Shown one piece after another: positions 44,787-50,505 of a DNA stretch of 64,000 nt. Source of the DNA: a virus; the IMG/VR virus record IMGVR_UViG_3300025133_000055, positions 23,146 to 87,145 of that record. One strand, given 5' to 3'. Numbering within the stretch: position 1 is the stretch's first letter; each line of letters starts with the position of its first letter. The translations under genes and the position numbers were made by a program. Under the pieces are notes generated by a model. It was not told where the DNA came from. It saw only the letters and a program-made list of their open reading frames with translations, and searched no databases.

Positions 44787-45666
44787 TGTTGCCTTATGTC
44801 AAAGATCACTAACAGAAAAAGGATATCCAACAACTGTGGATTCTAATTTTGGTCCTGGGACAGAGGCCAAAGTAAAAGAATTCCAGGGAGATAATGGTTT
44901 ATCCGTCGATGGAATCGTGGGCCAGAACACTTGGCGACTTCTCTTAAGGGTCATTGATTCCTGCGGCATCGAAAAGAAGCACATTGTTCACAATGGAAAG
45001 CTTATTCCAATTGGTTGGGACAAGGTTGTCTTGTGGCACGAACCAGGAGGCTTGGCTATCAAGCCGGGCCGATATTATGATAATTCTGGAAAAGCAGAAA
45101 GAAAACCAACAATGTTTGTTAATCATTGGGATGTCTGCCTTTCAGCAGAGAGTTGTACAAATATTTTGAATGATAGGGGTGTCTCGGTTCATTTCTGCCT
45201 AGATAATGACGGAACAATTTATCAGGTTCTTGATACACAACACGGTGGATGGCACTGCTCACGGGCAGCAGGGAACAAGAAAAGTATTGGAATCGAAATA
45301 AGCAATGCTTATTACCAGAAATATCAGAAGACATATGTAAAAAATGGATTTGGCGAAAGACCGATACAAACCGAGGGTTTGGTTCATGGACGAAAGCTCA
45401 ATCCATTTTTGTGGTTCTACCCTCGTCAAATTGAGGCTCTCAAGGCCCTGTGGACTGCCGTGAGTGTGTCCTACGGAATTCCCTTGGTCTATCCACAAAA
45501 TGATGATGGAACGCCTTGTACGACGACTCACGAGGGATGTATTAAAGGAACGTTCGAAGGTTTCTGTAATCATTACAACTTCACCGATCGGAAGATAGAT
45601 TGCGCTGGATTAGATATGTCTGGGCTCATAGAAGAAGTCAGGGGTTTTCTTCCAGATGATGACTAA
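44746..45666 (+). CDS. Endolysin: peptidoglycan-binding domain plus amidase_2
   Basis: G..G.DV...Q..L...G...VD..FG..T...V..FQ...GL.VDGIVG..TW; amidase VNHW, SVHF, WH, N..SIGIE and H.....KIDC. Confidence 0.88.
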   Translation: MNHSLIKKGDRGSDVALCQRSLTEKGYPTTVDSNFGPGTEAKVKEFQGDNGLSVDGIVGQNTWRLLLRVIDSCGIEKKHIVHNGKLIPIGWDKVVLWHEPGGLAIKPGRYYDNSGKAERKPTMFVNHWDVCLSAESCTNILNDRGVSVHFCLDNDGTIYQVLDTQHGGWHCSRAAGNKKSIGIEISNAYYQKYQKTYVKNGFGERPIQTEGLVHGRKLNPFLWFYPRQIEALKALWTAVSVSYGIPLVYPQNDDGTPCTTTHEGCIKGTFEGFCNHYNFTDRKIDCAGLDMSGLIEEVRGFLPDDD

Positions 45667-45674
45667 TTATAGTC

Positions 45675-46232
45675 GTGAAACTCCTACTTGAAAATTGGCG
45701 ACATTTCTTAAACGAAAGTGTTAACCCTGAAGAGGAATTATACTTGGGGGAAATTCAAGTAGAGGATAAGGTCATACCGGTTTTTCTTGACCCCGAAAAC
45801 GGAATTGGCCAAGTGCCGTGGAATCAGAATATTAATTATGTGGGTTTTGTTGTCTATATGACGCCAAGTGAATTTTTAAGATTAAATCCATCACGCAGTT
45901 CAGGAGAAGAATCTTTTCAATCCTTGAAGGATTATATGCTGTCTCAAGAAGAACTAAAAATTGGCCCTCCATTTTTGCAGCCGCGATGGGATGAAGAATC
46001 AAATCGCTGGATAATCAAACAACATGAAGGTCGAGGTAGAATGTTGGTTTTAAATGAATATATGCCTGATGAAGAAATTCCCGTGCATGTTTTTCCCCGA
46101 GGAGGACTTAGATCGCGTCATATAACAGATGAAATGCTTTTTGCTGATATGTTGTCTGATCCTCGCGGAGACTCTGATAATGTCTTCTCGCCAACAAAAG
46201 TAATTTTAAATGGAGAAACCAGAACACAATGA
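45675..46232 (+). CDS. MKLLLENW cassette 1: ParB/Srx-like domain
   Basis: M.PSEFL, PPFL and HEGRGR; GTG start 13 nt after the start of ACTAATTAT. Confidence 0.55.
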   Translation: MKLLLENWRHFLNESVNPEEELYLGEIQVEDKVIPVFLDPENGIGQVPWNQNINYVGFVVYMTPSEFLRLNPSRSSGEESFQSLKDYMLSQEELKIGPPFLQPRWDEESNRWIIKQHEGRGRMLVLNEYMPDEEIPVHVFPRGGLRSRHITDEMLFADMLSDPRGDSDNVFSPTKVILNGETRTQ

Positions 46233-46627
46233 AGCTCCTACTTGAAAATTGGCGGAAGTATATAATAGATGAGGTAAAAATTTCAACTGAAGACGATAAG
46301 AGGATCTTTCAGATAGACGGCGGAAGGATAACTGTCATAGAAAACAGTAAATGGGCCGGTGGCGCTCATTCGATATACGATTTTTTTGTTGATGAAAATA
46401 AAAGAGGCGAAGGTTTAGGAAAGAAATTAATCCAGATAGTGTTGGATAAATATCCGAGTAAAGAAATCTCCGCGCAAGTAAGCAGTTTAGCTTCCTTGAA
46501 GGCTTTTATGGATTCGGGTTTTAAACCCTCCGAAAAGCCCGATGCTTCTTTTGAAGAAGCAAAAGAAATTTTTGATTTCAACTCTAGTAGCCTAAATTTG
46601 AGGATTAACTATGAAACTCCTACTTGA
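46229..46627 (+). CDS. MKLLLENW cassette 2: GNAT acetyltransferase
   Basis: Acetyl-CoA motif A FFVDENKRGEGLGKKLI; S..AF...GF. Confidence 0.75.
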   Translation: MKLLLENWRKYIIDEVKISTEDDKRIFQIDGGRITVIENSKWAGGAHSIYDFFVDENKRGEGLGKKLIQIVLDKYPSKEISAQVSSLASLKAFMDSGFKPSEKPDASFEEAKEIFDFNSSSLNLRINYETPT

Positions 46628-48538: not shown

Positions 48539-48933
48539 AACTCCTACTTGAAAATTGGCGAAGGTATATAGCAGAAGCCCACGGATTAGATACTACTTGG
48601 GATAATCTTCATATTGATGATGTTTTTAAAATTACAGGGAAAAGTTGTGATGAGGGAGACGGTAAAGAATGCAAGACGTACACCACAAAAAAACTCAAAG
48701 ACTTGTTGAAAAACAAACCAATTGTTGATACATTAGATCCAAAAAGAGTAAAGTATGCTAATCCTGAGTACCCGCTAATTGTTGTAGTTAACAATGGTGA
48801 ATATCAGTATATTATGGATGGAAACCATCGTTTCGCAAATGCTGTAAAAACTGGTAAAGATGTAAAAGTTAAAGAATTAGATATTGAAGAATATAATGAA
48901 ATGTTTGGGGCGCAAAATGAAGCTCCTACTTGA
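48535..48933 (+). CDS. MKLLLENW cassette 5: ParB/Srx-like domain
   Basis: YPLIVV...YIMDGNHRF..A. Confidence 0.7.
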   Translation: MKLLLENWRRYIAEAHGLDTTWDNLHIDDVFKITGKSCDEGDGKECKTYTTKKLKDLLKNKPIVDTLDPKRVKYANPEYPLIVVVNNGEYQYIMDGNHRFANAVKTGKDVKVKELDIEEYNEMFGAQNEAPT

Positions 48934-49510
48934 AAATTGGCGAGAGTATATAAATGAAGACGAAGGCGCTTCTTCCCCGCTCGATCTAAAGATCGGGCCG
49001 AATCAGAGAATACTTGCACTTAGCGAACCGTGGAAGGGATTTCCATCCAATATTCAACAGAAGAAGGGACCTAAGCCAGATGGAGTTTGGTATGGCTGCG
49101 GCGACTCATGGCTTAAATGGATGGCACGAGAGATGCCGCATTGGCTTGACCGTGTAAATTATGTTTATGAGCTTGAGATATACGATGCGTTTATGAAAGT
49201 CATCACCAATGCGGAGCAGTTCAAAAGCTTTGAACATGAGTTCTGGGCCAGGGCGCCGCATCAAGAAAGGGCAGAGCACACCGGTCCAATTGATGGAATA
49301 TACCATATGATTGATTGGCCACTTCTTGCAGGCATCGACTGGGATGGGATAGAAATTTGTCCATATCTTTGGGAATTTAGAATGAGCAACAGCGCGTGGT
49401 ATTATCCGTGGGATGTCGCTTCGGGATGTATTTGGGATTCGGAAGCACTTATTGGTGAACCAAAATTATTATGGCAAAGAGAATCAGATGAAAGCGGAGA
49501 AGAAGAATGA
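48917..49510 (+). CDS. MKLLLENW cassette 6: Trp-rich hypothetical enzyme
   Basis: KPDGVWY...W..W, IDW...DGIEI and WDVASGCIW. Confidence 0.55.
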   Translation: MKLLLENWREYINEDEGASSPLDLKIGPNQRILALSEPWKGFPSNIQQKKGPKPDGVWYGCGDSWLKWMAREMPHWLDRVNYVYELEIYDAFMKVITNAEQFKSFEHEFWARAPHQERAEHTGPIDGIYHMIDWPLLAGIDWDGIEICPYLWEFRMSNSAWYYPWDVASGCIWDSEALIGEPKLLWQRESDESGEEE

Positions 49511-50505
49511 AACTCCTACTTGAAAATTGGCACCAATATTTAAACGAGAGAAAAACTGATGAACTTTATTCTCGTTTAGTGGATTTTTTTGTGGATGCTT
49601 ATTCTGATCCTCAAAACTTTGAATATGAATCGGAAGGGGAAAAAGAGGATTATGAGGATTCTGATTGGCTTGATCATGAAACGCTCCTGCGCCTGGGTTT
49701 TAAAAAAATAGATCCGAAGGAACTAAGAGATCATGCACTTCTTCTAGTTATACCTCGTCGACACGAGATTGTTGAAAAAGTTCGAGAAGTGGATCCAAAA
49801 GGAGAATTAATCTCACAAGATATTGATCGGGAAGGCCATTGGCTGCCCTCTATCGAGATTAAATTTGATAAAGAATCGGGTGCAATGGGGTCTTGGAATA
49901 GTGGTACCAGAGAACTGACTCTATATTTTAATAGTATTATGGACGAAGAAACATATAGACAAATTTCGGATGACGATGATATTATAAATATTATGAGATC
50001 ATCAAATTATAAATCTCTTCTTCGGTATATCTTTGATCACGAACTAACACACTTTATTAATGCGACCAGGGCAGGAAATGAAGATGGGTTAATGGATAGA
50101 AATTATTGGAAAACCAAAAGGGGAAAAGAGATTTATCAATATATTAAAGATAATTTTCCTGGCCTGGAGCGGACGGAAGGCATCGCGGGAGTTGAAAAAC
50201 AAATAAGATATATTAATAGCACTGAAGAAATTCAGGCGAGATTAATTCCTATTTTTAAGTTGGTTCAAAATTTTGTTAATTCTTCAGAAGAAGTTGATAT
50301 AGATACCGAAACCGATGATTTAAATTTTATTAGAGATGAAATCGAAAAAGAAAAACCAGATGTTCGAAAAATAATTAAATATATGAAAAACATATATGAT
50401 TTTCGACACCAGCATTATTGGGAATTAACAATAAAACCGCTTCAAAATAAAATACTTCAACGGCTTTATCAGTTTGCTTTGCATATGATCGAAGTTGAAA
50501 AATAA
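49507..50505 (+). CDS. MKLLLENW cassette 7: HExxH metallopeptidase-like protein
   Basis: DHELTH plus distal Y....EEIQA. Confidence 0.6.
   Translation: MKLLLENWHQYLNERKTDELYSRLVDFFVDAYSDPQNFEYESEGEKEDYEDSDWLDHETLLRLGFKKIDPKELRDHALLLVIPRRHEIVEKVREVDPKGELISQDIDREGHWLPSIEIKFDKESGAMGSWNSGTRELTLYFNSIMDEETYRQISDDDDIINIMRSSNYKSLLRYIFDHELTHFINATRAGNEDGLMDRNYWKTKRGKEIYQYIKDNFPGLERTEGIAGVEKQIRYINSTEEIQARLIPIFKLVQNFVNSSEEVDIDTETDDLNFIRDEIEKEKPDVRKIIKYMKNIYDFRHQHYWELTIKPLQNKILQRLYQFALHMIEVEK

Follow-up and report, generated by a model that had tools for sequence, protein, structure and literature searches.

A 25-nt coding leader shared by unrelated phage genes marks points of cassette exchange and may tag their products for packaging into the head

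Seven unrelated genes begin with the same 25 nt

We analyzed a 64,000-nt stretch of viral DNA (positions 23,146 to 87,145 of IMGVR_UViG_3300025133_000055; hereafter the window), which makes up the final 64 kb of an IMG/VR contig of 87,145 bp, here called G000, with a CheckV completeness of 48%, and focused on an array of seven consecutive plus-strand genes (g1 to g7) that all open with the same 25-nt coding sequence, the leader. The pattern RTGAARCTCCTACTTGAAAATTGGC has seven exact matches on the plus strand (45675, 46229, 46611, 47825, 48535, 48917 and 49507), and a match to the degenerate 25-mer was obtained in 0 of 100 shuffled sequences. Every copy is the start of an open reading frame (ORF) of 132 to 405 amino acids (aa), the seven ORFs tile positions 45675 to 50505 without a gap, and the leucine codons CTC-CTA-CTT are identical in all seven leaders. 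Past the leader, the payload bodies are mutually unrelated upon sequence comparison. The common start, the identical synonymous leucine codons and the unrelated bodies had been described in a previous sequence-only reading of the window and are borne out here.

In an alignment of the seven starts, nothing is conserved ahead of the start codon, from which all copies are identical up to and including ...TGGC; over the 17 nt that follow, identity drops to 76-90%. The genes overlap by 4 or 17 nt, leaving no intergenic space, and each internal gene takes its stop codon from the leader that follows: for g1, g3, g4 and g6 the stop is A|TGA at +2 of the following leader, and for g2 and g5 it is ACT TGA at +15, whereby their products terminate in ...ETPT and ...EAPT. 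The leader DNA holds stop codons in both other frames, and reading from upstream is therefore terminated inside it.

The first gene, g1 (45675..46232), starts with GTG and encodes the leader MKLLLENWRHFLNE followed by a 171-aa payload with no family assigned, ending on the TGA within the ATGA of the g2 leader. In g2 (46229..46627, ending within the g3 leader), the leader MKLLLENWRKYIID carries D at position 14 and precedes a GNAT acetyltransferase payload (PF13673, 3.4e-6), for which a homologue with 81% protein identity is present in L094. The 391-aa payload of g3 (46611..47828), with relatives in L030, L062 and L040, is similar over residues 107-262 to gp205 of PA5oct, a virion protein identified by electrospray ionization tandem mass spectrometry (ESI-MS/MS).

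The payload of g4 (47825..48538) contains an invariant Y24-H25-x-T27, a G-Q-G and a D-Y-E106, and its family is found behind A-type leaders, B-type leaders (MKITRRQLRKLIMES) and others. Using VIA-align, the g4 model matched TreX (Z 7.9, root-mean-square deviation (rmsd) 4.0 Å, 106 residues aligned), EcPltA (Z 7.6, 2.7 Å, 102 aligned) and pertussis S1 (Z 7.4, 3.1 Å, 98 aligned), in a list of best matches consisting nearly entirely of ADP-ribosyltransferase folds. Foldseek returned no match at E <= 0.001 for this model, its weaker matches again being ADP-ribosyltransferase folds. With Z values no more than middling, the predicted ADP-ribosyltransferase fold of g4 is persuasive because the list is so uniform.

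For g5 (48535..48933), whose payload has an invariant DGNHR motif, the top eight matches to the model all belong to the ParB/sulfiredoxin superfamily (best Z 6.5, rmsd 3.3 Å, 79 aligned), and this family recurs in the leader arrays of many contigs. The payload of g6 (48917..49510) has actinobacteriophage relatives without a leader, and the last gene, g7 (49507..50505), encodes the leader MKLLLENWHQYLNE and a 318-aa payload with a HELTH (HExxH) motif. PDB sequence searches with g1, g3, g5 and g7 gave nothing usable, and a relaxed Pfam threshold yielded no informative match for g1, g3, g6 and g7; Atlas look-ups provided weak leads only, namely LPD-type domains for g7 (0.83-0.86) and LRV/HEAT repeats for g3.

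These assignments bear on the simplest explanation of the array, by which the seven genes would be recent tandem-duplication paralogues with bodies diverged beyond recognition: the identical 5' ends and the tandem arrangement fit it, yet it is contradicted by the different folds and families of the bodies (GNAT, ADP-ribosyltransferase, ParB/sulfiredoxin), by relatives in other contigs that are closer to each body than its array neighbours and by payload homologues without a leader or with another one, and we give it practically no credence.

The leader peptide shares its geometry with the capsid-targeting sequence of T4

From approximately 185 loci we collected 347 distinct full-length leader proteins, whose payloads, stripped of the leader, form at least 138 families, with 85 singletons. 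The resulting logo, M K L L [L/F] E N W R x [Y/F] [L/I/V] x E, spans 14 residues, and its conserved positions include W8 (344 of 347 proteins), R9 (323), Y/F11 (325), L/I/V/M12 (324) and E14 (287), of which R9, Y/F11, L/I/V/M12 and E14 lie outside the search pattern. The sequence [LIVM]xE occupies positions 12-14 in 282 of the 347 proteins, and information content stays below 0.5 bit from residue 16 on.

In phage T4, the capsid-targeting sequence (CTS) is MKTYQEFIAE (PMC8442874), in which residues 4 and 7 serve mainly for targeting and residues 8 and 10 for processing (PMC9026906, PMC8442874), and CTS-type propeptides are 10-19 residues long (PMC9026906). The spacing of W8, Y/F11, L/I12 and E14 in the leader (0, 3, 4, 6) is the one observed for Y4, F7, I8 and E10 in T4, and the same spacing recurs in a second leader type of this genome (L8, I11, I12, E14).

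This second leader, MK(I/L)(T/S)xxxL(R/K)xII(K)EE, occurs on at least eight unrelated small genes between window positions 32674 and 41519 (starts at 32674, 36461, 38053, 38574, 39364, 40113, 40724 and 41037, around a ClpP-like head protease gene at 33855-34421), and its codons vary between copies. Counting both types, this half genome contains at least 18 leader genes.

In the AlphaFold models of g4 and g5, the leader forms a low-confidence helix that stands apart from the rest of the model. We consider the leader to be modular, based on the g6 payload relatives that lack it and on the g4 payload family that carries other leaders. In a g5-family gene of another locus (L020:2249-2596), the stretch between the TGGCG of the leader and an internal TGGCG (WR...WR) is deleted, with loss of the IxE.

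T4 leaders are removed by the gp21 prohead protease. Among leader-bearing genomes, all 7 complete ones tested encode a gp21-type protease (Peptidase_S77), and so does G005, a 106-kb backbone relative, in which the order of genes is that of the T4 head module (portal, small genes, protease, genes at the scaffold position, major capsid protein). Moreover, a leader-like motif opens the gene directly downstream of the protease in each of four genomes compared (WRTFLNE, WKNYLVE, FRNFMKE and the canonical MKITKLRLRRIIKEE), and in one complete genome a MKLLLEHWNRYLQE gene sits between portal and protease. In G002, the gene right after the S77 protease carries a canonical copy of the second leader. 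In the isolate Flavobacterium phage immuto (L317; MW353176.1, regions 117587-118887 and 123311-125424), two adjacent genes start with M(A/E)(D)NF(N/D)L(R/K)xFL(T/V)ENKLT, and head-module genes contain the CTS-like KEHFIAE and HKWQAKFLKE.

Taken together, the CTS geometry, the gp21-type protease of the lineage and the motif on the protease-adjacent gene argue, if indirectly, for a capsid-targeting role of the leader, which we regard as likely; the capsid targeting put forward in the sequence-only reading is retained on this indirect footing.

A shared N-terminal tag could also do another job, such as binding of a common partner like the GroEL of the phage, membrane association, oligomerisation or signalling degradation, in which case the proteins would stay unpackaged and recombination at the leader would still be real. 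Such a tag would suit an amphipathic helix of low model confidence, in a phage that encodes GroEL and places its array among metabolic-looking genes (amidoligase-like, gamma-glutamyl cyclotransferase-like, lysin). It leaves aside, however, that the motif ends in (L/I)xE at the spacing of the T4 CTS, that the S77 protease co-occurs with it in all complete genomes tested and that the same motif appears next to the protease in the head module, and we consider this alternative unlikely.

The spelling of the leader is frozen across a phage lineage

Among the matches listed, the exact 24-mer stands at gene starts in more than 120 IMG/VR contigs, often in several copies per contig. In a codon-blind scan for MK[L/F]3ENW[R], the canonical spelling accounted for 141 of 279 dereplicated starts, by far the commonest, and for approximately 74% of MKLLLENW starts, as compared to 0.08% expected from the codon usage of this phage. 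Thus, the codons of the leader are frozen across the phage group, silent positions included.

In the window, the solitary leader gene at 14149..14493 (plus strand) encodes the same leader peptide type (MKLLIESWRKYLNE) with codons that differ from those of the array. The sequence-only reading had correctly pointed out this difference and had inferred from it an array-specific DNA identity, a conclusion overturned by the occurrence of the same 24-mer throughout the contigs above; the contrast instead reflects a lineage-wide canonical spelling accompanied by drifting variants. Many leaders with one to four silent changes persist in arrays, and the idea that canonical spelling is confined to arrays was rejected upon inspection of the eight-gene array of G002, in which both canonical and variant spellings occur.

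In four marine metagenomes, the leader bins reached 300-7000x summed contig depth compared to 20-60x for the flanking backbone, and many distinct sequences adjoin the leader on both sides. These runs were available as Logan contigs, which break at every leader, and the joint sides are shorter than 30 nt, so that circles and deletion variants are not visible in them; the coverage of g4, g6 and g7 below that of the flanks in three runs is not usable as evidence.

Among isolate phages, blastn with the array and with the 42-nt leader gave no match other than three S-TIM5-type rows that represent chance matches in a tail sheath gene, tblastn with g4 and g7 gave none, and we found no paper containing this leader. 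By major capsid protein, the nearest isolates belong to the 'far-T4' group: Flavobacterium phage 'immuto' (50% identity), Microcystis phage Mel-JY01 and Rhodothermus phage RM378. The lineage is an uncultured marine group of 'far-T4' myoviruses, probably with marine Bacteroidota as hosts.

Freezing of silent sites may stem from constant exchange or gene conversion among leaders, from selection for homology or from a cis-acting role. The last of these, taken as a full explanation, would have the identity maintained by a nucleic-acid function at the start codon, for instance a RegA-like repressor operator or a translation-initiation element, with recombination as a by-product. Consistent with it, identity starts exactly at the start codon and spans 25 nt whatever the upstream sequence, the codons are frozen far above what the peptide requires, and the functionally similar B leader is not frozen.

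On the other hand, there is no structure signal (mean minimum free energy approximately -6.7 kcal/mol per 60 nt), and a hairpin between CUCCU and the Shine-Dalgarno region, considered as a candidate, was rejected as no better than with permuted upstream regions (pairing 0.60 versus 0.59). The persistence of leaders with silent changes in arrays also speaks against such a function, which would furthermore leave the conserved peptide and its (L/I)xE unexplained. We rate it as improbable, somewhat below the other-job tag, and as compatible with a packaging tag that doubles as a recombination handle.

Cassettes are exchanged at the leader

The sequence-only reading had further taken the repeat for a recombination crossover, to be recognised by gain, loss or reordering of cassettes among related contigs with breakpoints in the 25-mer. 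Comparison of such contigs bears this out. The locus L019 differs from L044 and L087, within flanks 100% identical over 2.1 and 5.1 kb, by the presence or absence of one 395-bp cassette, and the single junction consists of the sequence upstream of copy 1, the 25-mer and the sequence downstream of copy 2. L017 and L020 contain one and four cassettes, respectively, between flanks that are 97% and 94% identical, and two cassettes of L020 are absent from L028.

Backbone relatives of G000, which share approximately 72% DNA identity over replication genes, carry a leader locus of variable content between two conserved genes of the replication region: G005 (L035) has only a 10-codon stub, L077 and L038 have two cassettes each, L105 has at least two including a g6 homologue (77% nt identity), and G007 (L033) has a g6 homologue (g6', 82% nt identity), a 154-aa cassette and a g7 homologue (g7'). 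The copy of this locus in G000 itself lies ahead of the window (genome 14932-17189, window -8213 to -5956) and consists of two genes, one of 532 aa that starts with MKSLFENFRRW and one of 220 aa whose leader, MKLLMENWREYLKE, is written in non-canonical codons; g6 and g7 lie elsewhere, directly adjacent to each other and without the cassette that separates their homologues in G007.

Whereas the backbones are approximately 72% identical, g7 and g7' share 96% of their DNA, with 24 of 25 identical positions over nt 1-25, 13 of 20 over nt 26-45 and 105 of 105 over nt 46-150, a profile that places a breakpoint where the leader meets the payload. Another syntenic region, upstream of the homologue of the gene at 55997, contains one to six cassettes of differing content in a dozen contigs; overall, the two hot spots hold zero to seven cassettes of varying content.

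When all leader loci are pooled, there are 166 internal ends of high-scoring segment pairs with at least 92% identity, and 57 of them fall within 30 nt of a leader; this corresponds to 0.29 ends per leader versus 0.018 per other gene start, an enrichment of approximately 16-fold. Overall, these results demonstrate that the leader is a crossover point for deletion, insertion and exchange of cassettes within and between genomes.

Homology at the junctions varies from 25 to approximately 50 nt and sometimes reaches upstream. Searching for Phage_integrase (PF00589) gave no match in the 87-kb contig, with matches in all control genomes and with the missing half of the genome unsearched. There are no inverted repeats at cassette borders, where the direct 25-41-nt leader is the sole boundary repeat family, and G000 encodes a RecA/UvsX-type recombinase, a gp32-type single-stranded DNA-binding protein (SSB) and a DnaB-type helicase. 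The absence of integrase and inverted repeats, the variable homology and the recombination genes suggest a homologous or microhomology-based mechanism rather than a site-specific one.

Leader stubs of 10-11 codons (MKLLLENWRG, ...GL, ...GI, ...GM) followed by an unrelated gene were also observed (L035, that is G005:1755, minus strand; G001:20050; L060; L119; L126). The G005 stub, the only leader sequence at a hot spot devoid of cassettes, has the look of a scar and can be attributed to a deletion via 7-nt microhomology between GAGGATA of a WRGY-type leader and GAGGAT(A) in the Shine-Dalgarno region of the next gene.

The integron-like array proposed in the sequence-only reading, in which the 25-mer would be the site of a dedicated site-specific recombinase and cassettes would move as circles, finds little room in these data. 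It would match the close packing of the cassettes in tandem on a single strand, each with its own copy of the repeat, and the solitary stubs resemble empty sites. With neither the integrase domain nor attC-like inverted repeats found in the 87-kb contig, with junction homology that varies in length and extends upstream, and with microhomology accounting for the G005 stub, we regard it as very improbable.

A proposed model of head-packaged cargo

The observations above can be accommodated by a model in which the seven genes form a hyperplastic cargo array, its unrelated payloads each fused to one 14-residue propeptide, M-K-L-L-[LF]-E-N-W-R-x-[YF]-[LIV]-x-E. This propeptide would form an amphipathic helix that acts like the T4 CTS and docks the protein on the prohead core; the gp21-type prohead protease of the lineage would then cut after Glu14, and the payload would remain in the head and enter the host with the DNA. 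The same leader would be the recombination handle, for which the RecA/UvsX-type recombinase and the gp32-type SSB of the phage would suffice, making a dedicated recombinase unneeded. We hold this model, with the leader as both packaging tag and recombination handle, to be moderately probable; that any captured ORF becomes a head-delivered effector is plausible.

Several observations weigh against the model. The (I/L)xE ending assigned to the array leaders by the sequence-only reading is present in six of the seven genes, and g2 reads I-I-D at positions 12-14, with D instead of E at the predicted cleavage position. In T4, Asp at the cleavage position stops processing and leaves targeting intact (PMC9026906). 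Some other members of the leader family lack (I/L)xE as well, for instance the g5-like gene of L020 described above.

No S77 protease match was found in the G000 contig, an absence that we ascribe to the missing half of the genome, and the head protease that the contig does encode is the ClpP-like one at 33855-34421. The relative with the head module, G005, is the one reduced to a 10-codon leader stub, and no cultured phage carries this leader by blastn against isolates.

As to recombination, gain and loss are not distinguishable in the observed indels, all of which could be direct-repeat deletions rather than captures of new genes. A length of 25 nt is short for efficient homologous recombination. 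Finally, a cis-acting function of the DNA or RNA could account for part of the silent-site conservation.

A wider version of the model can be formulated, in which the 25-nt leader is a community-wide 'plug' of marine far-T4 phages that would at once be packaging label, protease site, stop codon for the upstream gene and homology handle. Any payload could be exchanged between co-infecting phages through ordinary recombination and be injected at once, the second leader MKITK..L..IIKEE would be interchangeable and lead into the same head, and the whole would amount to a recombinase-free functional analogue of an integron, devoted to effectors delivered by the virion. We offer this version tentatively, at slightly less than an even chance.

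Neighbouring genes and a candidate promoter motif

The array is preceded by a plus-strand gene for a 610-aa amidoligase-like protein (42326..44158) with the leader-like N-terminus MKMLFENKELILE, a gamma-glutamyl cyclotransferase-like (GGACT) gene (44337-44786, plus strand) and a lysin gene with peptidoglycan-binding and amidase_2 domains (44746-45666, plus strand). Between the end of the lysin gene at 45666 and g1, no terminator-like site was found. Downstream, the gene at 50969..53587 (plus strand) encodes an 872-aa amidoligase-like paralogue (38% identity) of the 610-aa protein, so that the two paralogues bracket the GGACT gene, the lysin gene and the array. Aligned position by position, its N-terminus, MKKWKDFLTE, has four identical and four similar positions to the T4 CTS, MKTYQEFIAE.

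The upstream amidase was tried as a synteny anchor and discarded as not useful, since the array lay beside it in 0 of 78 loci. In two metagenome runs (X1 and X4), contigs join position 44213 to 46547 with 24 other letters between; this join would skip the GGACT gene, the lysin gene, g1 and most of g2, and may represent a relative or a repeat artefact.

The T4 late-promoter motif TATAAATA is absent in front of the array. In the whole window, this octamer occurs 15 times (4.8 expected), and 11 of the 15 occurrences read TATTTATA on the coding strand, all on the plus strand (6401, 23163, 32450, 34450, 36134, 37485, 40088, 42315, 50528 and 52177, with the eleventh at 46718 inside g3). Several of them shortly precede a gene start (the distance is 4 nt to the ATG at 42326 and 18 nt to 40113, for instance), and TATTTATA is a candidate promoter motif for the phage group.

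Comparison with known systems

The T4 enzyme Alt is a packaged ADP-ribosyltransferase-type protein, and its fold is the one predicted for g4. More generally, the internal proteins of T4 (IPI, IPII, IPIII, Alt, processed by gp21) and the array products both have a short N-terminal peptide, in the array a putative propeptide, on unrelated, non-essential-looking proteins, both peptides follow the pattern aromatic-x-x-aromatic-(L/I)-x-E ending in a gp21-type cleavage motif, and a gp21-type protease is found in T4 and in complete genomes of the present lineage. Other T-even phages have different proteins behind CTS-like leaders (PMC9026906; PMC12373910), and the gene content of T-even ip loci is described as differing between relatives (Repoila et al. 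1994, as reported in PMC12373910 and PMC9026906), a feature shared with the leader loci.

The present leader differs from that of T4 in sequence and length (14 residues, MKLLLENWRxYLxE, versus MKTYQEFIAE), in its seven genes per array and the leader-gene total of this half genome given above, compared to three Ip genes in T4, in its many payload families, a good number of them enzyme-like, instead of small basic inhibitors, and in the letter-identical DNA of the leader in the IMG/VR contigs listed as matches.

With respect to mechanism, promoter-early stem-loops (PeSLs) mediate modular shuffling in the hyperplastic regions of T4-like phages (Comeau, Arbiol, Krisch 2014, PMC4122927). PeSLs and the leader are both short conserved repeats between unrelated genes that serve as homologous exchange points, with indels and swaps in hyperplastic regions, and breakpoints between close relatives fall in the repeat here as well (L019/L044, L017/L020, L020/L028, G000/G007). 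PeSLs are, however, intergenic composites of promoter and terminator, whereas the repeat described here is the coding first 25 nt of a gene that also specifies a peptide and the stop of the preceding gene; in the array, no consensus promoter, terminator or hairpin coincides with it, and its folding signal is weak and non-specific. We consider the T-even ip loci to be the closest system in function and PeSL-type modular shuffling the closest in mechanism.

Integrons share with the array a tandem of unrelated same-strand genes, one repeat copy per gene and variable content among relatives. They differ from it in their IntI-type recombinase, of which none was found in the 87-kb contig, and in their structured attC sites, the repeat here lying within the 5' end of the coding sequence, and the integron analogy holds only loosely, as a functional picture.

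A similar repertoire of domains (ADP-ribosyltransferase, ParB-like, acetyltransferase and a zincin-like motif) reportedly characterises the polyvalent proteins of Iyer, Burroughs and Aravind (2017), phage effectors said to be co-injected with the DNA; those combine the domains in one giant multidomain protein, whereas here separate small proteins each have a leader. In comparison to the T-even ip loci and PeSLs, what differs is the sequence and length of the leader, the scale of the arrays, the enzyme-rich cargo, the coding nature of the handle and the lineage-wide identity of its letters.

Implications

If the leader is indeed a packaging tag, the proteins injected by an abundant group of ocean phages, both large and uncultured, could be read directly from sequence, and hundreds of families, among them ADP-ribosyltransferase-, acetyltransferase- and ParB-like proteins, would be candidate effectors of host takeover or anti-defence. 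The tag might also provide a handle for loading cargo into far-T4 phages. The locus further offers unusually clean natural examples of 25 conserved coding bases that drive the turnover of cassettes with no dedicated recombinase.

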